From NCBI RefSeq assembly GCF_022846255.1, contig NZ_AP025682.1: a stretch of 64,000 nt of DNA; one strand, written 5' to 3'. The notes under the pieces are model-generated. The model was not told the DNA's origin. It did not search any database and saw only the letters and a list, made by a program, of their open reading frames with translations. This document shows, piece by piece, positions 33,111-62,875 of this stretch. The translations under genes were made by a program, and so were the position numbers. How positions within the stretch are numbered: the stretch's first letter is position 1; every line of letters starts with the position of its first letter. The stretch comes from Escherichia coli (GTDB lineage: Bacteria; Pseudomonadota; Gammaproteobacteria; Enterobacterales; Enterobacteriaceae).

Positions 33111-33805
33111 CGCGGGAAAAAGTACTTTACCTGGAACTCGAAAATATTGCTGTAAAGTAACGAATAATCCAGCGGAATAGAGTTACTATCCACAGCCTGG
33201 GTCTGAATTTTAAGTATGGGATCCCGTGGGCTGATCCGTAAAATACTGGCGATTTCTGGGGTAGGAAAAGTCGGGGAGAAAGTTTCAAAGGTGCCAATGA
33301 TTTTGATCCCGCATTCGTTCTCAATATACGAAAATTTGGATTTTTGCATATGCGATACGGTTAAATCAGGAAAACGTGCCACTGACATCCACGTTTCTTC
33401 TAATTGTGCTGCATTATCCTCAATGAATCGCAGTCTCTTTATGTAATAAACCTGCTCACCAGTCACTAAATTCAGCTCAGTCGCAATAGTAGGAGAAGCA
33501 TCCTGCACTTCAAATTTCATAATCTGACTTCCTGCCTCTTTGCCGCTTTTATGTGCAATTTCACTGAAACTGTTCATGTGATCAATGTGTGCAACAAAAT
33601 TCTTTTTTTGAATGTATGTTCCTGAACCATGCTTTCTGTGAATAATTCCTTCGCCTTCCAGCAGGGATAATGCCTTACGCAGGGTATTACGCGAAACATT
33701 ATAACGAACAGCGAGTTCCGCTTCTGACGGCAACAAATCACCAACATGCCATGAATTGCCATTGATCTCGGATTTAAGTAAGCGGGCAATCTTTTGAAAA
33801 ATCAC
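33107..33805 (-). CDS. GntR/HutC-family transcriptional regulator (HTH plus UTRA effector domain)
   Basis: 232 aa, GTG start; N-terminus IFQKIARLLKSEINGNSWHVGDLLPSEAELAVRYNVSRNTLRKAL is a typical GntR HTH; divergent from PTS operon. Confidence 0.8.
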   Translation of the reverse strand: MIFQKIARLLKSEINGNSWHVGDLLPSEAELAVRYNVSRNTLRKALSLLEGEGIIHRKHGSGTYIQKKNFVAHIDHMNSFSEIAHKSGKEAGSQIMKFEVQDASPTIATELNLVTGEQVYYIKRLRFIEDNAAQLEETWMSVARFPDLTVSHMQKSKFSYIENECGIKIIGTFETFSPTFPTPEIASILRISPRDPILKIQTQAVDSNSIPLDYSLLYSNIFEFQVKYFFPR

Positions 33806-34003
33806 TTTTGCACCTTTTAAGAGCCATTGAAAACAAGGAGTTGAGACCTGATTAGTTTATCGTATGGCCGAGTCGTTTAATTATCACCCTGTTGTTGAAC
33901 AACTTTATTGCTGTATTACTGTGATCAATGTACCAGGACGTGTAGCTACTGTGGGATATGATATTTACACAATGTAGTCTGTTATATACCAGTAAGGAAA
34001 AAT

Positions 34004-34315
34004 ATGAAAAAGATATTGTTAGTTTGCGCTGCGGGCATGTCAACCAGTATGCTGGTTAAACGTATGATTGATCATGCTACCGCTATTTCACTTGAAGTTA
34101 ATATTTCCGCATTGGCGATTGCAGAGGCTAAAGGGAAAATTAAAAATAACGAAGTTGACGTTGTTTTACTTGGTCCGCAAGTTCGCTTTCAGAAACCAGA
34201 GATTGAAGCCGTTGCACAGGGGAAAATGCCTGTAGCCGTTATCGAGATGAAAGACTATGGCACAATGAACGGACAGGCAGTTCTTGAATTTGCGATGAAA
34301 CTACTGCAAGAGTAA
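34004..34315 (+). CDS. PTS EIIB, lactose/cellobiose family
   Basis: 103 aa, MKKILLVCAAGMSTSM with the phosphorylatable Cys; AAGGAAA Shine-Dalgarno. Confidence 0.85.
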   Translation: MKKILLVCAAGMSTSMLVKRMIDHATAISLEVNISALAIAEAKGKIKNNEVDVVLLGPQVRFQKPEIEAVAQGKMPVAVIEMKDYGTMNGQAVLEFAMKLLQE

Positions 34316-34429
34316 GAATCTAATATTATTAAACTATTACCTGAACTAACTTTTCACACATCATAAAATGGATATGGCATACATGCTTTATTGGGATGTA
34401 TAAATATCCAGGACAACAGGTATAAAAAA

Positions 34430-35752
34430 ATGGGATTAATGGCATCATTCGAACGTGGAATGGAACGTTTTCTTGTTCCAGTTGCTATCAAGTTAAACTC
34501 ACAAAAACATGTTGCAGCGGTGAGAGATGGATTCGTTTTTACGTTTCCAATTATCATGGCAAGCTCATTAATTATATTAATTAACTTTGCCATATTATCG
34601 CCCGACGGTTTTATTGCCGGATTACTGCATCTGAACAGCATTTTCCCCAACCTTGAAAAAGCACAAGCTATTTTTACTCCGGTAATGAATGGTTCTGTAA
34701 ATATCATGTCAATTATGATTGCTTTCCTGGTCGCCAGGAATGTGGCGATTAGCTATGAGCAAGATGATCTTTTATGCGGATTAACGGCAATAGGAGCATT
34801 TTTTATTGTTTATACCCCATACCAGATGATAGATGGGCAGGCATTCCTGACGACCAAATATCTCGGCGCGCAGGGGTTGTTTGTTGCTGTTATCGTTGCA
34901 TTGATCACCAGTGAAATATTTTGTCGCTTAGCTCGAAACCCCAAAATCACCATAACGATGCCGGCAGCTGTACCTCCTGCGGTAGCGCGTTCATTTAAAG
35001 TTTTATTGCCAATATTTTTTGTCATGGTGTTCTTTTCCGCACTTAATTATTGCCTGACATTGATATCCCCGGCAGGATTAAATGATCTCATTTACACATT
35101 AATCCAGACGCCGCTCAAACATATGGGAACGAATATCTTTGCGGTAATTATCCTGGGGGCTGTGGGTAATTTCCTCTGGGTGCTGGGGATCCACGGACCT
35201 AATACAACGTCGGCAATTCGAGAAACCGTTTTTTCTGAGGCTAATCTGGAGAATCTCTCCTGGGCCGCTCAACACGGCACTACCTGGGGCGCGCCATATC
35301 CGATTACCTGGACTTCTATTAATGATGCATTCGCCAACTGCGGCGGTTCAGGTATGACGTTGGGGTTATTGTTGGCTATTTTTATCGCTTCTAAGCGTGC
35401 GGAATACCGTGATCTGGCAAAAATGTCATTTATCCCCGGTATTTTCAATATCAATGAACCGATAATGTTCGGCCTTCCTATTGTACTTAACCCCATCATG
35501 ATGGTGCCGTTTATTATGGTTCCCATTGTTAACTGTGCCATTGGTTACTTCTTTGTTTCGATGGAAATTATTCCACCGGTTGCTTATGCCGTGCCCTGGA
35601 CTACGCCCGGACCTTTAATTGCTTTCCTCGGAACCGGGGGAAACTGGCTGGCATTACTGGTTGGTTTTTTATGTTTAGGTGTGGCGACAATGATCTATTT
35701 ACCTTTTGTTATCGCCGCCAACAAAGTCAATAACATGACAACTAACGGATAA
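34430..35752 (+). CDS. PTS EIIC permease, lactose/cellobiose family
   Basis: About 440 aa multi-TM ORF; start uncertain (ATG 34430 or 34439; track ORF begins at TTG 34391). Confidence 0.85.
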   Translation: MGLMASFERGMERFLVPVAIKLNSQKHVAAVRDGFVFTFPIIMASSLIILINFAILSPDGFIAGLLHLNSIFPNLEKAQAIFTPVMNGSVNIMSIMIAFLVARNVAISYEQDDLLCGLTAIGAFFIVYTPYQMIDGQAFLTTKYLGAQGLFVAVIVALITSEIFCRLARNPKITITMPAAVPPAVARSFKVLLPIFFVMVFFSALNYCLTLISPAGLNDLIYTLIQTPLKHMGTNIFAVIILGAVGNFLWVLGIHGPNTTSAIRETVFSEANLENLSWAAQHGTTWGAPYPITWTSINDAFANCGGSGMTLGLLLAIFIASKRAEYRDLAKMSFIPGIFNINEPIMFGLPIVLNPIMMVPFIMVPIVNCAIGYFFVSMEIIPPVAYAVPWTTPGPLIAFLGTGGNWLALLVGFLCLGVATMIYLPFVIAANKVNNMTTNG

Positions 35753-35779
35753 TTCCATTTACCCAGGAAGGAGATTGTG

Positions 35780-36091
35780 ATGTTTGCAGATGAAGAACTT
35801 GTTATGGAGTTACTGATCAACGCGGGACAGGCTCGTTCTGATGCGATGGAAGCCATACGTTGTGCCGGGCAAAAAGACTGGCAGGGCGCAACTAAACTAA
35901 TGGCCAGCTCTGAATCTGCCTGTCTTCAGGCGCATAAGATTCAGACCGCGTTAATTAGTCAGGATGAAGGCTGTGGCAAAATAGAAGTTAATTTAATTCT
36001 GATACATGCACAGGATCATTTGATGAATGCAATATTATGCCAGGATTTAGCCAGGGAAATTATTTCATTAAGAAAAGAGCTCCATGCCTGA
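35780..36091 (+). CDS. PTS EIIA, lactose/cellobiose family
   Basis: 103 aa, conserved His in HAQDHLM context; AGGAAGGAG Shine-Dalgarno 7 nt upstream of ATG. Confidence 0.85.
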   Translation: MFADEELVMELLINAGQARSDAMEAIRCAGQKDWQGATKLMASSESACLQAHKIQTALISQDEGCGKIEVNLILIHAQDHLMNAILCQDLAREIISLRKELHA

Positions 36092-36142
36092 TTTTTTCTC
36101 CAGTGCGATATCTGGAGGAAATTACTACACTCTTAAGGATAA

Positions 36143-39287
<3,145 letters not shown>

Positions 39288-41333: not shown

Positions 41334-42524
41334 CTATTGCGTCTGTTCTTCGAGTGTCACTGGCCAGCGGCGAAAAATGATGATTGACCATATTAACGCA
41401 GCAAAAGCAGGCACCGCGCCCACATAACCAATCATCGACATTGACCAGTGCAGACTCACCTGATTACCTACCAACGCACCCGCGCCGATTCCAATATTAA
41501 ATATCCCGGAGAATAGCGCCATCGCGACGTCGGTGGCATCTGGTGCCAGCGCCAGCACTTTAACCTGCATACCAAGCCCGATGATCATCATCGCGATCCC
41601 CCAGAAAATACTCAGCACCCCGAGGTGTATTTCACTGTTCGCCGCAGGTAGCAGCAGTGCCAGGCACACCAGCAATAGCGCAATCGCTGTACTCACCAAC
41701 GCAGACGCATACTGATTACCCAGTTTACCGAAAATCACGCTGCCAATAATGCCCGCACCACCGAGTAATAACAGTAATGCCGTGGCAAAGTTGGCGCTGA
41801 ATCCCGCAATGTTTTGTACAAAAGGCTCGATATAGCTGTATGTCGTGTAATGGGCGGTGACAACCACCACAGTTAACAAATAAATGCTCATCAATGCCGG
41901 GCGGCGGAACAATAGCGGGAGGCTTTTCAATGAACCGGAATGCTCACTGGGCAGCAAGGGAAGTAACTTAATCAGGCACAAAAGGGTAATAAGCGCCCCG
42001 ATACCAATCGCGAAGAAGGTCATTCGCCAGCCAAAATACTGCCCCACAATGCGCCCGAGAGGTAAACCTAATACCATTGCCAGTGCTGTACCGGTGGCAA
42101 TTAAACTCAATGCCTGTGCTCGCTTCCCGGCCGGAGCCATACGGATCGCCAGAGACGCCGTAATCGACCAGAAAATCGCATGTGCAAAAGCCACACCAAT
42201 GCGACTGATCACCAGAACGGTAAAACTCCACGATAAAAACGACAGTACGTGGCTGGCAATAAACACCACAAACAGGCAGATCAGTAATTTGCGGCGTTCA
42301 ACCTGGCTGGTCATTAACATAAACGGCAATGACATTAGCGCCACTACCCATGCATAAATTGTCAACATGATGCCGACCTGAGCGGTTTGCATGTGAAAAC
42401 TATGCGCAATGTCAGAGAGCAGGCCAACAGGGACAAATTCGGTGGTATTGAAGATAAAGGCGGCGACTGCCAGCGTAACGACCCGTAGCCACGCTACTTT
42501 GCGGGAAACAGTGTTTGTTGTCAT
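41334..42524 (-). CDS. sotB: MFS sugar efflux transporter SotB (YdeA)
   Basis: 396 aa, 12-TM MFS. Confidence 0.88.
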
Positions 42525-42862
42525 AACAGATTATCGGGTGAGTTGCGAAAAAGTGATGAAATGATCTTAAAACGGTTAATGATGTGAATACAATGCATTT
42601 GTGATCTGGATCGCATTTCCATCTCTCTGACGGTTGTTCTGTCACGCATCAGAGAGTTGTTAACATCACATTTTAATGACGATCAGGAAGGGGGCCTGTT
42701 CTTCTTTTACTTGAGGTGCAATATTACGAACGGGAAAATCATCAGGAAGAGATATGTAATTGCTGATGCTTACTGGCGTAACCATATTTGCCCCATATAG
42801 TCATAAGTCATCGGAACATCACTATATAGAGCATATTAGCCGTATGAACTATCAAAAATAGC

Positions 42863-43744
42863 TCATTGGTAACCCTGTTTTGCCGAGTCAGGCGCATCCA
42901 GCAGTTGAATAAATGCCTCAAGCGGACGCGTTTTCGCACCACGACGCCAGACCAGCCAGGTTGTTAACCAACGCCATTGCTCAGCTAACGGCCACGCTTC
43001 AACCTGGTGATGCCCCGGCATACTTTCCAGCATTGAGCGTGGAATAAGCGCAATGCCTGCTCCTGCGACCACACAGGCCAACATCCCGTGATAAGACTCC
43101 ATCTCGTGAATAGTTCCCGGAGCGGCACCGTCAGCATGAAACCAGCTTTCGAAGTGGCGACGATACGAACAATTGGCGCGGAAGGCATAAATGTTACTGC
43201 CATTCACCTGACTGGCACGGGTTACTGGCGCATGTCCTTGTGGCGTGACGATCATCAGTTCCTCGCGGTATACCGGTATCCCGTCAATGGCAGTATGGTT
43301 AATGGGCCCATCAATAAATGCCGCATTCAGTTTTCCCTCCAGCACACCTTCCAGCATAGTGCCGGAAGGGCCGGTGGAAAGTGAAAACTGAATTTTGGGA
43401 TAACGACGGTTAAATTCCGCCAGCGTGGCCGGAATGCGCACTGCAGCGGTGCTTTCCAGCGATCCCAGAGAAAATAAACCTTGCGGCTCATCGCCAGCGA
43501 CAACGCTCCGCGCTTCATCCACTAACGTGAGAATTTGTTGGCTATAGCGTAAAAAGTTATGCCCGGCAGGCGAGAGACGTAAACGCTGATTCTCGCGAAT
43601 AAACAGATCAACCCCTAGTTCTGTTTCCAGCTGACGTAGACGGGTAGTGAGATTCGACGGCACGCGATGCACTTTTGCTGCAGCCTGGGTAATGCTGCCA
43701 GCTTCGGCAACCGCGTTGAACATCTCCAGTTGGGTCAGATCCAT
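42863..43744 (-). CDS. yneJ: LysR-family regulator YneJ
   Basis: 293 aa, N-terminal HTH; divergent from sad. Confidence 0.85.
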
Positions 43745-43844
43745 AACATTCTCGATTCGTGAATAAGTGGCTTAATATTATTCATTTTAAAGCAAGAGTA
43801 AATCTGCGTATCTTCATACCATGACTCATAAAGGAGATACCCCG

Positions 43845-51747: not shown

Positions 51748-52038
51748 TCACGGCATCAACCCATTGAACAGACGTTTTTTACGCGGCCCGGTCATTAAAG
51801 ATTCCAGTTTTGCGACACAGGTTTTGTAGTGGGGCGTGGTTTTATGGAATGCCACTGCGTCTTCATCTTTATAGGCTTCGTAGATATAAAAGCGCGAATT
51901 CACTTCCGGGTCCTGTAAGACATCGAAGCGCAAATTGCCTTCTTCCTGTACAGAGCCCAGGTGGTTCTGGCGAAAAACTTCGATAAACTCGTCAACCTTG
52001 TCTTCATGAACGTTAATTTCAACCAGTGTGACGTGCAT
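51748..52038 (-). CDS. lsrG: AI-2 degradation enzyme LsrG
   Basis: 96 aa from [18 protein letters not shown]; AAGGAGAAG Shine-Dalgarno upstream. Confidence 0.9.
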
Positions 52039-52060
52039 GTTTCTTCTCCTTAATCCGCAG

Positions 52061-52936
52061 TTACTGTTTTTCACTCAGATAGAGTTCATATGCCCGATCA
52101 GCCGTTTCGTTATGGTGTACCACCGCCTGTACGGCTTTCATCATCGCCACCGGATGGTCAGACTGGAAAATATTACGCCCCATATCCACACCAGAAGCGC
52201 CCTGATCGATAGCCTGCCAGCACATTTCCAGCGCCTCGCGCTCCGGTAATTTTTTACCGCCAGCAATGACAATGGGTACCGGACATCCGGCAACAATCCG
52301 TTCAAAACCTTTATCGACATAATAAGTTTTGATAATCTGCGCCCCCATTTCAGCGGCGATTCGAGTCGCGAGCGAGAAATAACGTTGGTCGCGCACCATA
52401 TCTTTGCCCACGCCAGTGACGGCCATGGTCGGCATTCCCGCTTTCATTCCGGCATCGACCAGCTGAATAATATTTTTGATCGACTGATGTTCATATTCGC
52501 TGCCGATATAAACCTGCGCCGCCACCGCGCAACTGTTCAGGCGCACGGCATCATCCATCGATAACGCCACGGCTTCATTACTTAATTCCGCCAGAATAGA
52601 GTTCGCACCTGACGCCCGCAGTACCACCGGCTTATTGGTCGCAGGGGGGACTACGCTGCGCAAAATACCGCGCGTACACATTAATACATCGGCATGTTCA
52701 AACAGCGGGGCGATATTTATATCAATGCGTTCAAGTCCGGTAGTCGGCCCCTGAAAATAACCATGATCAAAGGCCAGCATCACGGTTTTACCCGTTTTCG
52801 GATTAAATATCCGCGATAAGCGTGACTGCATTCCCCAATCCAGTGCACCGCAACCTTTCAGGGTAAAAGGGATATTTTTTTGCGGTTGATCGGTACGAAA
52901 ATCTTTACCATCTTTAATATCGTCTAAATCTGCCAT
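52061..52936 (-). CDS. lsrF: phospho-AI-2 thiolase/aldolase-family enzyme LsrF
   Basis: 291 aa, DeoC/class I aldolase family. Confidence 0.9.
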
Positions 52937-52962
52937 AACGTACTCCGGTTAAGTAATGCACA

Positions 52963-53985
52963 TCAGAAATCGTATTTGCCGATATTCTCTTTGTTGAATA
53001 TCACGCGCTCCGGTAACAGTACGATGCCATTACCATCCGCTTCGTAGTCATAGCCCTGAACGCTGTTTGGCGAGACTTCCACCTGACCTACGCCCTGAAT
53101 ATCCAGCTTGTCGCCCGTTTTCATTGATCCTTTTTTCAATAATGCATCCGCGACATAAACTGATATTTTGCCTTGCTGAACCACATCCCACAGGCCAAAT
53201 TCTTTCACCGTGCCGCGTTCCACATATGGACGCATCACGTTTGGCGTACTGAATCCGACAATCGCAACTTTGTCATTTTTCAGGTTTTCTGCGGCTTGTG
53301 CGGCAGCGGGCAGGGCATTGGCATCGGGGGCGATAATGGCGTCGAGATCGCTATAGGCTTTTAATATTCCTTCTGCGGTTTGTAACGATTTAGTGGCATC
53401 GTTATAGCCAAACTGCGTAGTGACAATTTCCCAGCCTGGATGCTCTTTGGCGATTTTCGCTTTCGCTTCTTTCACCCACTGGTTTTGGTCCGTAACGGTG
53501 GGGCTTGAGTAGAAAAACGCGACTTTGGCTTTGTCTTTATTCACCTGACGCGCCGCCATATCCACCAACATACCTCCCAACTGGGCGGGCGTTCCCTGAT
53601 TAATGTAGTAAGAGCGGCACTCCGGTTTAGTATCAGAGTCCCAGGTCAGCACTCTCACACCACGTTGCATGGCGCGTTTCAGTGCCGGACACAAGCCATC
53701 AGGCGAAACCGCAGAAACGATAATGGCGTTATACCCCTGATTGACGAAGTTATTAATCAACTGTACCTGACCAGAAACACTGGGTTCTGTCGGCCCGTCG
53801 TAGGTCACATCAACGCCCAACTCTTTACCCGCTTGTTGTGCGCCGTTGCCACCGCTGGTAAAAAATCCCACGCCAACCAGTTTGGGAATAAATGCAATAC
53901 GCTCTGCCGCCTGCACATTCATAGAGATTACGGCAATGCCAAGCGCGCTAAGTAAGGCGATTTTCTTAAAGCGATGAAGTGTCAT
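52963..53985 (-). CDS. lsrB: AI-2 periplasmic binding protein LsrB
   Basis: 340 aa with signal peptide. Confidence 0.92.
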
Positions 53986-53996
53986 GAAGATATCCT

Positions 53997-54989
53997 TTAT
54001 GGCAATGGGTTATTGGCCCGACGCGCCAGCCACTCTTTAATTTGCTGGCGATGCAGGCTAACGGAACGACCTACGACAACGACGATAAGTAGCGCACCGG
54101 AAAGGGCGCTGGACACCTGATTTGGCACTCCTGCCATTTGCAAACCTTGTTGCAAATATCCCACTAATAAAACCGCTATGGCGGTGCCGATAATGGAACC
54201 AGAACCACCATAAATATTGGCACCGCCGAGCACTACGGCGGTGATGGCGGGCATCAGAAACGACGCACCGAGATCGGAACGTGCTGAACCAAAATACGAT
54301 ACCAGCAGCACAGCGGCGACCGCAGACGCCAGCCCCGTCATGGCATAGAGCGCACACAAGGTGCGGTTAACTGGAATCGCGCTATAAACCGCCACACGCG
54401 GGCTTTGCCCAATTAAAAACACGTTACGTCCGGCATGGGTTTTATGCAGCCAGAGCCAGAAAACGAGGAGACATATCAGGAAGATAATCAGCGGAACGGG
54501 GAGCCCCAGCACATCCAGGTTAGCGAAATCTGTAAACGCCATCGGGAATCCACCAATACCTTCGTACCCCGTCGCTCCGGCCATCCCGGAAAGCAGCAGG
54601 GCGCTTCCGGCAAACAGATACAGCGTGCCAAGCGTAATCACCAGCGGGTTAACTTTGGTATAGATAATTAATCCGGCGTTGATCAGCCCGCACAATGCGC
54701 CGAGCAGTAAGGTCAGAAGAATCGCCAGCGGCATCGGCACACCACTTTGAAACAGTACGCCCAATGCAATGGCGCAGAGGCCGATGGTCGAACCAAACGA
54801 AATATCGATCCCACCACTGACAATCACCATCGTCAGCGGTAGGGCGACAATGCCAATGCAGATAAAGTCACTGGTGCTGAACAGCAACATATTGAGATCT
54901 AACATCCGCGGGTTAATTGCACCAAATGCGACAATCTCAATAACGAGCAGTGCGGCAAGAGCCAGTTCCCAACCGTAGCGAATACGCAT
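53997..54989 (-). CDS. lsrD: AI-2 ABC transporter permease LsrD
   Basis: 330 aa multi-TM permease. Confidence 0.9.
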
Positions 54990-56017
54990 TATGCAGCCTC
55001 CCGTTTTTTACCTGACGAAGCGGGTTTAACGGATGGCGGAGGCGTCATAAAGCGGGCATATTTTTGCCGCCGCAGATTACGTTCCAGCGCACAACGCAGG
55101 CGTCCATCAAACACCAGCACCGCCAGCAGAACCAGGCCCGCGATAAAATCGTTCCACCATGCCGGAATGCGCAACAGCACCAGTACACTATCGATCTGCG
55201 TCAGGAACCATGCGCCGAGTACCGCACCGATGATCGCACCGGAACCGCCGAGCAAACTAATGCCGCCCAGCACGCAGGCTGCAATTGCTTTCATCTCCAG
55301 CCCGGTACCGGTCTGGTTGGGGATAAAACCAATCTGCGAAGCAAACACAATTCCCGCCACTGCCGCCATGCAGCCGTTCAACGAAAATGCCACAATGCGA
55401 ATGGCTTCCGTACGAACGCCCAGTTGACGAGCGCCCTGTAAATTATCGCCCGTGGCATAAAAACTGCGTCCAAACGCCGTCTTCGCCAGCAGCCAGGCCA
55501 TAAATGCCACCAGAATTATCGTCAACCAACCAATCGCGGAAACGCCAAACAGCAGCGGGGCAGAGAGTTGTTTCAGTTCGGCGGGTAATCCCTCAATCCA
55601 TTTACCGCCAGTCCACAGCAACATGATGCCTCTGTACAACCCTAACGAGCCAAGGGTGGCGACAATGGCAGGGATCTTTAGCCACGCGACCAGGACACCG
55701 TTGAAAAATCCCGCGAGCAAACCAAGCAGTAGAGTCGCGACACAAGCAACAGGTAGTGAATACCCCGCGTTCAGTAACATCCCCAACAGCACCGCGCACA
55801 TTCCGGTAATCGAACCCACTGAAACATCAATATTGCGCGTAAGCATTACCAGCGTCGCGCCCATTGCCAGCAGGATCAGGATTTGCGCGCTGCTATAAAC
55901 CATGGTCAGCGTTTGCACACTTAAATACTGACGGTCGAGAAAACCGGGTAATACAAACAGCAGCACCACCGCCAGCAGTGCCGTGATTTCACGGTTGTTC
56001 TGGATAAACTTCAGCAT
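54989..56017 (-). CDS. lsrC: AI-2 ABC transporter permease LsrC
   Basis: 342 aa multi-TM permease. Confidence 0.9.
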
Positions 56018-57546
56018 GACGCCTCCTGACGCTGACTATCTCCGAAGGCAACGCGCATAATGGTCTCGACATTAATATCGCGCCCGGTCAGTGCAGAGTG
56101 GGCAATTTCGCCCTGATGCATCACATACACGCGATCTGCCATCAGTTCGATCTCTTCGAGATCAGAGGAGATAAGCAGCACAGCCACATTCTGTGCGGCG
56201 ATGCTGCGCAACAGTTGGTAGATATCATTACGCGCCGAGACATCCACGCCGCGCGTCGGCTCATCGACAATCAATACTTGCGGCGAAGCTTCCAGGCATT
56301 TGGCAATCAGGATTTTTTGCTGGTTGCCACCGGATAATGTCCGTGCAGCTTGTTCCGGTTGGTTAAATTTAATATTCAGCGCCCGACGATATCGTTCCAG
56401 GGTGGCATTATCTTTCGCGGTTTTCGCCCAGAATCCACGAAGGTTATGAGTAAGGGCGCAGACGTTCCAGGCCAGCGAAGCATCGAGATTCAGTCCGGAT
56501 GACTGGCGATCTTCCGGCAGATAAACCAGACCGCGCAGTAAACGTTCTCCGGTGGATAATCTATTGATATCTTTACCATTCAGCATAATGCGTCCGCCAC
56601 GCAAAGTACGCAGACCATAGAGCGTCTCGGCCAGTTCTGTGCGTCCGGCTCCCACCAGTCCAGCCAGGCCCAGAATTTCTCCGGCATTGAGCGTCAGGCT
56701 GACATTCCTGAAACCTTCGCCGGTCAGATTTTCCAGTGTCAGCACCGGCGTTCCGGCGGCATGTTGTGGGCGGTTGCCAGGTAATTCCAGCCATAATTTT
56801 TGGCTGGCAGAGAGCGATTTTTCCCGTAGCGCTGGCGTGATGGCCTGAATAATGTCGTCGGTAGACAGTTCGCTGGTTTTGCCGCTTAAGGCGATGGTTC
56901 CGTCGCGCATCACGCTAATCCGATCGGCAATCTGGCGAATTTCCGGCAGCTTATGCGAGATAAAAACAATACCCACGCCAGTAGCAAGCAGCTCTTGCAA
57001 GCGACTAAACAAGCGTTCGGTTTCCGCAGGGGTAAGCGAGGCGGTAGGTTCATCGAGGATCAGAATCTGCGAGTCGCGCATCAGCCCACGGAGGATTTCC
57101 ACCATTTGGCGATCGGCGACATCCAGCGATCCTGCCAGACTATGCAGATCAAACTGGCAGCCCAGCGCCACCAGCAAGTTATTCATTTTCTGTATGGAGA
57201 GTTGTTTTTTTGCCAGACCAAACAGGATGTTTTCTTTTATCGACAGGCTTGGAAAAAGCAGCGGTTCCTGGGGAACGAGATAAATGCCCAGCTGATGAGC
57301 ATGAACTGGCGTTAATCTGGTGTAGTTGTTGCCCCCAATCTCCAGCGTACCGCTATCAGCAGGGGTAATACCGGCAATAATCTTCATTAACGTCGATTTA
57401 CCGGCACCATTGCCGCCGAGCAGTGCGTGGACCTCCCCCTGATGCAACGTAAAATCGATGCCTTTCAGGACATTAACCCCTGAATACTGTTTATAAACCG
57501 AGCGGGCGCAAAGTAGCGGTAACGCGCGGGTATCACTCGTTTGCAT
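56011..57546 (-). CDS. lsrA: AI-2 ABC transporter ATP-binding protein LsrA
   Basis: 511 aa with two ABC cassettes (Walker [10 protein letters not shown] and GLVGAGRTE). Confidence 0.92.
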
Positions 57547-57710
57547 ATTTCCCCCGTTCAGTTTTGCAGGTGAGTTTTGAACAAATGTATTTCTGCTTTT
57601 AATTTGTTCATAACCTTAGGTGGACATTGCACATATTTCCGACGAATAGATCACAATTTATGCTATTTTGATTTTCACGGTTGCGTTTGTTCATGCTCGT
57701 AGAGTCAAAC

Positions 57711-57726
57711 TGTGGTTGCTATCACA
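57711..57726. promoter_or_regulatory. CRP-site-like sequence in the lsrA/lsrR divergent intergenic region
   Basis: TGTGG-ttgcta-TCACA, near match to TGTGA-N6-TCACA. Confidence 0.45.
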
Positions 57727-57794
57727 GATATAAATGCGCAAGAACTGAACAATTGCATTAAAGATTTAAATATGTTCAAAGTGAAGAATGAATT

Positions 57795-58748
57795 ATGACA
57801 ATCAACGATTCGGTAATTTCAGAACAGGGAATGTGTGAAGAAGAACAGGTCGCGCGGATTGCGTGGTTTTACTACCACGACGGGCTGACCCAGAGTGAGA
57901 TCAGCGATCGTCTCGGCCTGACCCGTTTGAAAGTGTCGCGATTACTGGAGAAAGGGCATCAATCCGGCATTATTCGCGTACAGATTAATTCACGCTTTGA
58001 AGGCTGTCTGGAATATGAAACACAATTACGTCGTCAGTTTTCGCTGCAACATGTCCGGGTGATCCCAGGGCTTGCGGATGCTGATGTCGGCGGGCGACTA
58101 GGGATAGGCGCGGCGCATATGTTGATGAGTTTACTTCAACCACAACAGATGCTGGCGATTGGTTTTGGCGAGGCAACCATGAATACGCTGCAACGCTTAA
58201 GTGGTTTTATTTCGTCACAGCAAATTCGCCTGGTCACGCTCTCCGGTGGAGTCGGTTCTTATATGACGGGTATCGGGCAGCTTAACGCGGCGTGCAGTGT
58301 GAATATTATTCCGGCTCCGTTGCGGGCATCCTCCGCTGACATTGCCCGTACGCTAAAAAATGAAAATTGCGTCAAAGATGTTCTGCTAGCCGCGCAAGCA
58401 GCGGATGTGGCGATTGTCGGCATTGGGGCTGTGAGTCAACAAGACGACGCAACAATCATTCGCTCCGGCTATATCAGCCAGGGCGAACAGTTAATGATTG
58501 GTCGAAAAGGGGCGGTTGGCGACATTTTAGGCTACTTTTTTGATGCAAAAGGTGACGTTGTCACGGATATCAAAATACATAACGAACTGATTGGCTTACC
58601 TTTAAGCGCGCTGAAGACCATACCCGTCCGGGTTGGCGTGGCAGGGGGAGAAAATAAAGCCGAAGCAATTGCCGCTGCAATGAAAGGCGGTTATATCAAC
58701 GCACTGGTTACCGATCAGGACACAGCAGCGGCGATTTTACGTAGTTAA
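57795..58748 (+). CDS. lsrR: lsr operon repressor LsrR (SorC family)
   Basis: 317 aa, N-terminal HTH. Confidence 0.92.
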
Positions 58749-58826
58749 ATTTGCATGACCTTGTTACCGGGAATGATGGAGAACGTATAGAGGAACAGAC
58801 AGAACGCATAAGCCGAGGATAATCTA

Positions 58827-60419
58827 ATGGCTCGACTCTTTACCCCTTCAGAATCAAAGTACTACCTGATGGCGCTGGATGCAGGCACCGGAAGTATTAG
58901 GGCTGTGATATTCGACCTGGAAGGCAATCAAATAGCCGTGGGACAGGCGGAGTGGCGGCACCTGGCAGTACCGGACGTTCCTGGTTCTATGGAATTTGAT
59001 CTCAACAAAAACTGGCAACTGGCGTGTGAGTGTATGCGCCAGGCGCTGCACAACGCCGGCATAGCCCCGGAGTATATCGCTGCCGTTTCGGCATGTTCGA
59101 TGCGCGAAGGCATTGTTTTATATAACAATGAAGGAACACCGATCTGGGCCTGCGCCAATGTGGATGCCAGAGCGGCACGCGAAGTTAGCGAACTTAAAGA
59201 ACTGCACAACAATACCTTTGAAAACGAAGTTTATCGAGCGACCGGGCAAACGCTGGCTTTAAGCGCCATCCCCAGATTACTTTGGCTGGCGCACCATCGT
59301 TCCGATATTTACCGTCAGGCATCAACCATCACCATGATCAGCGACTGGCTGGCCTATATGCTCAGCGGCGAACTTGCGGTGGATCCCTCTAACGCTGGCA
59401 CCACGGGACTTCTTGATCTAACCACCCGTGACTGGAAACCTGCATTGCTGGATATGGCTGGCCTGCGTGCCGATATTCTTTCTCCTGTCAAAGAAACCGG
59501 CACATTGCTGGGTGTGGTAAGTTCACAAGCGGCGGAACTCTGCGGTCTGAAGGCGGGCACTCCGGTGGTCGTTGGAGGAGGTGACGTGCAGCTTGGTTGC
59601 CTGGGGTTAGGCGTTGTACGTCCGGCACAAACCGCGGTTCTTGGCGGCACATTCTGGCAGCAAGTTGTAAACTTAGCCGCGCCGGTGACAGACCCAGAAA
59701 TGAACGTGCGCGTTAATCCCCATGTTATTCCTGGCATGGTACAAGCTGAATCTATAAGCTTTTTTACCGGACTCACCATGCGCTGGTTCCGCGATGCTTT
59801 CTGTGCCGAAGAAAAACTGATTGCCGAACGTTTAGGCATCGACACCTATACGCTGCTGGAAGAGATGGCCAGTCGGGTGCCGCCTGGGTCGTGGGGCGTA
59901 ATGCCGATATTCTCCGACAGAATGCGCTTTAAAACCTGGTATCACGCTGCGCCTTCCTTTATTAACTTGTCCATTGACCCGGATAAATGTAACAAAGCGA
60001 CATTGTTCCGTGCGCTGGAAGAAAATGCGGCGATTGTATCAGCGTGTAACTTACAGCAAATTGCTGATTTCTCGAATATTCATCCCACCTCGCTGGTTTT
60101 TGCTGGCGGAGGTTCAAAAGGGAAATTATGGAGTCAAATTCTCGCTGATGTCTCGGGATTACCCGTCAATATTCCGGTGGTCAAAGAAGCCACTGCATTA
60201 GGATGTGCCATTGCAGCTGGCGTCGGTGCCGGAATTTTTTCATCAATGGCAGAAACCGGAGAACGCCTGGTTCGCTGGGAACGGACGCACACACCAGACC
60301 CGGAAAAGCATGAACTTTATCAGGATTCACGCGATAAGTGGCAGGCAGTTTATCAGGATCAGCTGGGGCTGGTTGATCATGGACTGACGACGTCGTTATG
60401 GAAAGCGCCAGGGTTATAG
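58827..60419 (+). CDS. lsrK: autoinducer-2 kinase LsrK (FGGY family)
   Basis: 530 aa, FGGY carbohydrate kinase family. Confidence 0.92.
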
Positions 60420-60502
60420 TTTCATTGACAGCCACACCATGATGACCGTGGCTGTTAGTTTTTGAGTATTGGTATTCTCATTTCCCTTCTTTTAGAGCTG
60501 GC

Positions 60503-62800
60503 TTGTTAAATGCCAGCTTGCAGATTCATCGTTCCATCACCAGTACTATATTCAAGGGGAAATTGCTATTCACGCTGATCAATGCGCTCAAAGGCGATGG
60601 CTTGATGCGAGTGCAGCTGTCATCCTCCGACAAAATGTTTGGCTTTACCCATGCAGCAGGGACTGAATTCGCCGGTGTTGCCCAACTGAAAGCCAGTACC
60701 TTCGCACTGGAACGCGACAACACCGCTGCGCTTACTTACGCGATGCTGCAGTCTGACAGTGAAAATACCACATTGGTAAAAGTGGGAGAGCAATCCATTG
60801 GTGGACTAGCCATGAATGGCGGTACGCTCACGTTCGATACGGATATACCTGCTGCGACGCTTGCGGAGGGATATATCAGCGTCGATACGCTGGTTGTCGG
60901 CGCGGGTGACTACACCTGGAAAGGCCGTAACTATCAGGTAAACGGGACGGGCGACGTGCTTATCGACGTGCCTAAACCGTGGAATGATCCCATGGCGAAT
61001 AACCCTCTGACGACGCTCAATTTTATGGAACACGACGATAGCCATGTCGGCGTTCAACTGGTGAAGGCGCAAACGGTTATTGGATCGGGTGGTTCATTAA
61101 CGTTACGTGATTTACAGGGCGACGAGGTGGAAGCGGACAAAACGTTACATATTGCGCAAAACGGAACGGTGGTCGCCGAGGGTGATTATGGATTCCGACT
61201 CACGACCGCACCTGGTGATGGTTTGTATGTTAACTATGGGCTGAAAGCGCTGAACATCCATGGTGGGCAAAGCTGACGTTAGCCGAACATGGCGGAGCCT
61301 ATGGCGCAACGGCCGATATGTCGGCAAAAATCGGTGGCGAAGGGGATCTGGCAATCAATACGGTACGACAGGTTTCGCTTTCCAACGGTCAGAACGACTA
61401 TCAGGGGGCAACCTACGTTCAGATGGGGACATTACGTACCGATGCGGATGGCGCGCTGGGCAACACCCGGGAACTGAACATCAGCAACGCGGCCATCGTC
61501 GATCTTAATGGATCGACCCAGACGGTAGAGACATTCACCGGGCAAATGGGTTCGACTGTTTTGTTTAAAGAGGGGTCGCTGACGGTGAATAAAGGTGGGA
61601 TCAGTCAGGGCGAACTGACAGGTGGCGGAAACCTGAATGTTACAGGGGGAACACTGGCTATCGAGGGGCTTAATGCACGCTACAATGCGTTAACCAGCAT
61701 TAGCCCAAATGCGGAAGTCAGCCTCGATAATACGCAGGGGTTAGGCAGAGGAAATATTGCCAATGACGGTCTGTTAACGCTAAAAAATGTGACCGGCGAA
61801 CTGCGTAATAGCATAAGCGGGAAGGGTATCGTGAGCGCAACCGCCAGGACAGACGTAGAGCTGGATGGCGATAATAGCCGCTTTGTGGGGCAATTCAACA
61901 TATACCGGAAACAATGGCCTGATGACGTTCAACGCGACGCTGGGCGGCGATAATTCACCCACGGATAAAATGAACGTGAAAGGCGATACCCAAGGGAACA
62001 CTCGCGTTCGGGTTGATAACATTGGCGGCGTCGGTGCACAAACGGTCAACGGTATTGAACTCATTGAGGTTGGCGGTAATTCTGCAGGTAACTTCGCGCT
62101 GACCACCGGAACTGTCGAAGCTGGGGCTTACGTCTACACGCTGGCTAAAGGGAAGGGGAATGACGAGAAAAACTGGTATCTGACCAGTAAATGGGACGGC
62201 GTAACGCCACCGGATACACCAGATCCCATCAATAATCCTCCTCAGCTGGGCGCTGTATAACTGGTTTGATAACAGCGTCAGTTCCGATAACCGTTCTGCT
62301 GACGACTATGATTCTCGCGGTGTGACGGCCTCTGTTGAGGGTGGGTATACCTTTGACGGGGAACATTTAGTGGCAGCGAAGGGACGCTGAATACCTGGTA
62401 CGTCCAGCCACAGGTGCAAATCACCTGGATGGCTGTGAAAGATTCTGACCATACCCGGAAAGACGGAACACGCATTGAAACGGAAGGTGACGGAAACGTG
62501 CAAACGCGACTTGGGGTGAAAACCTACCTGAACAGTCATCACCAGCGTGACAATGGTAAACAGCGTGAGTTCCAGCCTTACATTGAAGCGAACTGGATCA
62601 ACAACAGCAAAGTCTACGCCGTGAAGATGAATGGTCAAACTGTAAGCCGTGATGGTGCGCGTAATCTCGGTGAAGTACGTACCGGGGTTGAGGCGAAAGT
62701 AAATCACAACCTTAGCCTGTGGGGGAATGTCGGTGTGCAACTAGGTGATAAAGGCTGTAGCGATACTCAGGGCATGCTGGGTGTGAAATATAGCTGGTAA
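60503..62800 (+). pseudogene. yneO: autotransporter adhesin remnant (yneO/ydeK-like), 5'-truncated and multiply frameshifted
   Basis: Four + strand track ORFs in different frames (60503..61276, 61318..61953, 61865..62260, 62414..62800); Gly/Asn-rich passenger-like repeats; last fragment ends ...LGVKYSW typical of autotransporter beta-barrels; no signal peptide at 5' end. Confidence 0.7.
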
Positions 62801-62808
62801 ACCGTATA

Positions 62809-62842
62809 AGCCGCATGTCGAAGATGCATGCGGCTTAATATT
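62809..62842 (+). terminator. stem-loop after the autotransporter remnant
   Basis: 9-bp stem AGCCGCATG/CATGCGGCT followed by TAATATT. Confidence 0.5.
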
Positions 62843-62875
62843 GCCGACTTCAAACGACTTTTAAATCCTCCTTTT

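Follow-up and report, generated by a model that had tools for sequence, protein, structure and literature searches.

In Escherichia coli K-12 MG1655, three genes follow one another in the order ptrR (b1526), yneK (b1527, 1116 bp, 371 aa) and ydeA (b1528). According to published work, the middle gene occurs only in E. coli, Shigella and their close relatives (PMC12757027), and it is weakly expressed in K-12, with a base mean of 14 (PMC9068703). It also appears as an accessory gene, with an adherence signal, in a pangenome association study (PMC11540155), and genomic SELEX placed an NtrC peak in the spacer between yneJ (ptrR) and yneK of K-12 (PMC8743547). The K-12 YneK sequence returned no match in Pfam, PADLOC or the PDB, and an AlphaFold2 model of YneK, built on an alignment of six sequences, reached a mean pLDDT of 42, which is too poor for use. 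Among the database sequences, a 31-kb contig labelled "MAG: Caldithrix sp." (SMXE01000224.1) encodes a YneK that is 100% identical to that of K-12; this contig is almost certainly E. coli contamination.

A shortened form of the gene is already known, as RefSeq annotates a partial yneK in ~1100 complete genomes. In strains 536 (ECP_RS26850), A37 (AOY90_RS11635) and HCM-28C-2 (ACZ5UV_RS03230), for example, PGAP calls a 102 bp partial pseudogene of 34 codons, worded as "yneK, putative protein YneK, incomplete, missing C-terminus". No publication on its deletion emerged from our searches of the literature on yneK. Here we describe the equivalent locus in a 64-kb stretch of E. coli DNA (hereafter, the window), which agrees with the three annotated strains in the position of the partial gene, in the junction sequence and in the 338-bp spacer. 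Whereas PGAP marks 102 bp, our analysis extends the scar to a 39-codon ORF, a 9-nt junction and a 19-nt 3' remnant.

Both flanking genes are intact in the window and lie on the minus strand. The ydeA gene (sotB; 41334-42524), which encodes an L-arabinose/sugar efflux MFS transporter, is a 396-aa ORF matching the NF002921 equivalog with 665.8 bits, while ptrR (yneJ; 42863-43744), encoding a LysR-type putrescine utilisation regulator, is a 293-aa ORF matching the NF047711 equivalog with 490.4 bits. The name ydeA is the annotation in both 536 and K-12. Around these genes the window has the usual order, with marC, marRAB, sad, glsB and yneG, and over a 2.5-kb region it shares 99.8% identity with 536. 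The published PtrR operator, TTCTCGATTCGTGAA (PMC9068703), has an exact copy at 43749-43763, in the ptrR-sad spacer; our search found the box only there, and none inside the interval 42525-42862. For sad itself, an upstream ATG at 43821 would give an ORF of 470 aa, but relatives are annotated with a start equivalent to 43845 (462 aa).

In K-12, ptrR and ydeA are 1342 bp apart; in the window they are separated by 338 bp (42525-42862). A preliminary description of this DNA had stated that yneK lies between yneJ and sotB in K-12 and had put the present distance at about 340 bp. Both statements hold: b1527 does occupy that position, and the contrary case, a K-12 with no gene there, does not arise. 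The same description had concluded that yneK is apparently absent, which is right in the main, and that the interval contains no ORF; here two corrections are needed. Nucleotides 86-1097 of the gene are indeed gone, but yneK is not cleanly absent, as both of its ends were left behind as a scar; and the interval does hold an ORF of 39 codons, starting with ATG on the minus strand (42666-42785) at yneK's own start codon. Read from its sequence, the interval 42525-42862 is a deletion scar of yneK, not an empty site. We consider it highly probable that this is the scar of an old deletion of ~1 kb between ptrR and ydeA, which would have removed codons 29 to about 366 of the 371.

The breakpoints were established using blastn and a by-eye alignment with K-12 and two other intact alleles; a three-way MAFFT alignment misplaced the gap. 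With blastn, two blocks of homology were obtained. The first extends from the end of ptrR through yneK nt 85 and ends at window position 42701, while the second starts at yneK nt 1098 (window position 42691) takes in the stop codon, a stem-loop and the region upstream of ydeA, and extends into ydeA. In the pairwise alignment with K-12, yneK nt 86-1097 are missing and 9 nt are present instead, a net loss of 1004 bp. The K-12 gene (b1527; NF033404; UniProt P76150) and the window sequence thus represent an orthologous locus. Common to both are the upstream spacer, the start codon, the first 28 codons, the last 19 nt, the stem-loop and the ydeA promoter region; the difference is that K-12 carries the full 371-codon gene.

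Following the minus strand in the direction of yneK, the first retained element is the 77-bp ptrR-yneK spacer (42786-42862), recognised by its alignment with K-12. In it, a promoter scan picked out TTCATA-16-TATAGT (42848-42821) as promoter-like, and a GGGG run resembling a Shine-Dalgarno sequence lies upstream of the yneK ATG. The 5' remnant (42701-42785, minus strand) comprises the start codon and nt 1-85, that is, codons 1-28, with 96.5% identity to the same nucleotides of K-12 yneK. Next comes the deletion junction of 9 nt (42692-42700, minus strand), which reads AACAGGCCC in the yneK sense; with these bases separating the two homology blocks, it is not a clean two-ended join. The 3' remnant (42673-42691, minus strand), assigned by blastn and manual alignment to K-12, consists of the last 19 nt of the gene (nt 1098-1116) and includes the ancestral TAA stop codon (42675-42673), which is out of frame with the 5' remnant. 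Its sequence, CCTTCCTGATCGTCATTAA, exactly matches the 3' end of the intact, divergent yneK of strain 2017-02-2CC, and it is therefore genuine yneK sequence, not filler.

Strain 2017-02-2CC deserves a comment of its own. Over the ptrR-yneK-ydeA region it has only 92-95% identity with K-12, and likewise with the window; at the protein level, it shares 84% identity with K-12 YneK. This is unusually divergent for a strain labelled E. coli, and 2017-02-2CC may be a member of a cryptic Escherichia clade.

The protein-level search gave the same picture. When K-12 YneK was compared with the whole 64-kb window using TBLASTN, residues 1-34 alone matched, at 42785-42684 (E = 1.8e-12), and no second YneK-like copy was found in the 64 kb. 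Since the search recovers only this fragment, the gene has not moved elsewhere in the window.

A short ptrR-ydeA interval would also be expected if the window represented the ancestral empty site, with yneK being a later insertion in K-12-like lineages. The G+C content of yneK, 32-45% versus 50-54% in the flanks, hints at a horizontally acquired gene, and its confinement to Escherichia (PMC12757027) fits the same idea. However, an empty site would not contain yneK nt 1-85 with the start codon, nor nt 1098-1116 with the stop codon, and the window has both, which refutes an insertion into the K-12-like lineages. The outgroup agrees: Escherichia albertii NBRC 107761 has the order sad-ptrR-yneK-ydeA-marC-marRA, with a YneK of 68% identity at the same locus. 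Because E. albertii keeps ptrR-yneK-ydeA, any acquisition of yneK is older than the divergence of E. albertii from E. coli, and the window represents the derived state, a loss. We consequently regard the insertion scenario as very unlikely, and return to the deletion of an ancestral gene.

Other lesions have affected this gene. The yneK orthologue of E. albertii NBRC 107761 (L004 3001-4116) carries an in-frame stop at codon 86, which may be either an independent inactivation or a sequencing error in that draft. In E. coli BUCT2930 (NZ_CP059723.1), yneK is split by an insertion of the IS1B family, an independent disruption. Taken at face value, this repeated inactivation, by the scar deletion, the E. 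albertii stop and the IS1 insertion, suggests that yneK is dispensable and readily lost.

How was the deletion generated? Eight of the nine junction bases equal yneK nt 1042-1049, which suggests either a multi-step deletion, with two to three losses in succession, or one complex deletion. Our model starts from an ancestor with the order sad-ptrR-yneK-ydeA, which is still seen in K-12 and E. albertii. Then yneK nt 85 would have been joined to nt 1098 via the nine bases by illegitimate recombination, which probably took more than a single step; gene order, breakpoints, population frequency and direction of change are observed, the mechanism and the number of steps inferred. The yneK promoter region, the ribosome-binding site, the start codon and the first 28 codons would have been left in place, and the 5' part of the gene would have become fused out of frame to the last 19 nt, producing a 39-codon pseudogene, with the stem-loop and the ydeA upstream region remaining behind it. 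The resulting allele would since have passed by descent, and perhaps by homologous recombination as well, through a large E. coli lineage to which well-known phylogroup B2 strains belong.

To place the allele in the population, 5426 complete RefSeq E. coli genomes were used as the sample. At least 80% of yneK is present in 4263 of them, and about 1150 show a match covering less than 80% of the gene; those that were sampled from the latter match nt 1-85 alone. When the junction was probed with 130 nt spanning it, an uninterrupted match was obtained in 1115 of the 5426 genomes, about one in five, with 100% identity in Nissle 1917, ATCC 25922 and others. In roughly 39 genomes, yneK falls below the 80% threshold and this junction is missing too. 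Across the complete junction, GTAAAAGAAG-AACAGGCCC-CCTTCCTGATCGTCATTAA, the window is identical to 536, Nissle 1917 and others. These numbers also bear on the trivial explanation that an error of assembly or sequencing produced the short interval. Collapses are possible in draft assemblies, and nothing more specific speaks for such an error here. Against it, the junction recurs base for base in 1115 independently assembled complete genomes, 536 and Nissle 1917 among them, so that an artefact is hardly credible and the short interval is better explained by the deletion.

Among the strains with the junction are 536, F11, Nissle 1917, ATCC 25922 and one APEC O2:K1:H4 strain, all of which we take to belong to phylogroup B2. 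Whether the deletion allele is restricted to B2 is uncertain, because the flanks in HCM-28C-2 are ~2.5% diverged from the window. In this strain, ptrR and ydeA show ~97.5% identity to the window, about the distance that separates K-12 from the window, yet its junction is identical, as is that of 536. An identical junction on a haplotype of ~97.5% identity points to one old event rather than to recurrent deletions. The HCM-28C-2 allele would then be either older than that clade or moved by homologous recombination. In population terms, the yneK scar is an ordinary lineage-specific strain difference.

We also analyzed what the scar still encodes. The 39-codon remnant ORF, MVTPVSISNYISLPDDFPVRNIAPQVKEEQAPFLIVIKM (42666-42785, minus strand), was present in the ORF list and is a pseudogene that starts in the 5' remnant, crosses the junction and reads on through the 3' remnant in a shifted frame. 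It lies between ptrR and ydeA, on the same strand as both, and runs from the original yneK ATG (42785) to a TGA at 42668-42666. Residues 1-28 are identical to YneK, and beyond them the ORF reads the junction and the 3' remnant out of frame. The ORF scores 48.3 bits (cutoff 40) against the NCBIfam YneK profile NF033404, a match that is not full-length and covers positions 1-33 alone of the 371 in the profile.

Downstream of the remnant TAA lies a conserved stem-loop (42623-42656, minus strand), recognised by RNA folding and conservation. It contains the 8-bp inverted repeat that had been reported earlier at about 42623-42656, and these positions are exact, with CTCTCTGA at 42623-42630 and TCAGAGAG at 42649-42656. 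In the yneK sense the stem is ~10 bp long, one G-U pair included, and it begins 16 nt after the remnant TAA in the window and 17 nt after the yneK TAA in K-12. The predicted fold of the window hairpin has an energy of -18.6 kcal/mol (z = -3.5 versus shuffles), and that of its K-12 counterpart -24.2 kcal/mol (z = -4.8). A perfect 8-bp inverted repeat with a 3-40 nt loop arises in 17% of shuffles of the interval and is by itself unremarkable; we take the stem-loop as a real element because it is conserved, not because of the repeat statistics. Its stem core, TCTCTGA...TCAGAGA, is invariant in four lineages, represented by the window, K-12, strain LCP30S3_I5 and E. albertii. Among these four there is conservation alone, with no compensatory double changes in the hairpin, so covariation cannot support a structural role and that role is not proven.

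The hairpin was compared with known classes of elements. The pattern TCTCTGA-N10-30-TCAGAGA has a single occurrence in the 64 kb, and the many dispersed palindrome copies typical of REP/BIME-type elements are not seen within the window. Rfam gave no match at E <= 1 in 42300-43000, and a terminator scan of 42400-43000 found no site. The hairpin resembles an intrinsic terminator in being a stable, G+C-rich stem-loop placed directly after a stop codon. It differs in having no U-tract: no U/T-run lies 3' of the stem, the bases next to it being ATGGAAATGCG in the yneK sense and TTGTTAACATC on the opposite strand. Most likely, the transcript of the former yneK ended in this stem-loop, which would have served as an RNA-stabilising or weak terminating hairpin. 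It would have been kept because the deletion stopped short of it on the upstream side, and our prediction assumes that it is now carried along passively.

The last part of the interval is the ydeA upstream region (42525-42622, minus strand), with the promoter and 5' leader. These 98 bp were untouched by the deletion; no base differs from K-12 over ~42525-42611, and E. albertii shows good conservation too. A sigma-70-like TTCACA-16-GATCAT was found at 42588-42561 by the promoter scan. GATC (Dam) sites occur in the interval at 42563, 42603, 42609 and 42681, the first three in the ydeA upstream region; four sites compare with ~1.3 expected from the window-wide density, a marginal excess. Nothing in the sequence points to ydeA regulation being altered by the scar, with a small possibility of read-through.

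This possibility belongs to a broader alternative, in which the scar would be functional, either by encoding a small protein of 39 codons or by allowing read-through from the yneK promoter into ydeA that alters sugar-efflux regulation. The promoter-like element, the Shine-Dalgarno-like run and the ATG have all been kept, and the ORF is intact in both haplotypes examined. The deletion has also shortened the distance from the yneK promoter region to ydeA from about 1.3 kb to about 0.3 kb, and the hairpin, having no U-tract, is not a strong terminator. However, the low divergence within the lineage explains the intact ORF, and the last 11 residues, which are read out of frame, have no homologue. 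In addition, activity of the yneK promoter is very low in K-12 (PMC9068703), and the ydeA upstream region is unchanged. We therefore judge a functional scar to be very unlikely. Its boldest form, in which strains with the scar would express the ydeA exporter under a nitrogen/putrescine-linked signal that K-12 lacks, or would make a new 39-residue peptide, is likewise improbable; the suggestion of nitrogen-linked ydeA expression stems from the NtrC SELEX peak in the K-12 counterpart of the promoter spacer, together with the distance of ~0.3 kb. Returning to the scar as a mere remnant of deletion, we infer that it is selectively neutral.

Other presence/absence differences were observed nearby. 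A 3.9-kb segment of the window (33600-37527) is absent from 536, where truncated GntR-regulator and porin pseudogenes are left. The A37 counterpart of this segment encodes a GntR regulator, PTS IIB/IIC/IIA and a carbohydrate porin, and lies upstream of a 6-phospho-beta-glucosidase gene, between eamA and marB. Further along, about 11 kb beyond tam (51808-62858) has no counterpart in 536, in which tam is followed by hipBA. In A37, the tam-proximal part of this region corresponds to the lsr (autoinducer-2 uptake) genes lsrG, lsrF, lsrB and lsrD.

In summary of its relationships, the window derives from the yneK-loss lineage of E. coli, in which 536, Nissle 1917 and ATCC 25922 also fall. The scar could be used as a PCR length marker, as the distance between ptrR and ydeA is 0.34 kb with the deletion versus 1.34 kb with the intact gene. 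More generally, the loss of yneK explains the accessory status of this gene in pangenome studies, and the adherence signal attached to it (PMC11540155) probably reflects lineage structure.
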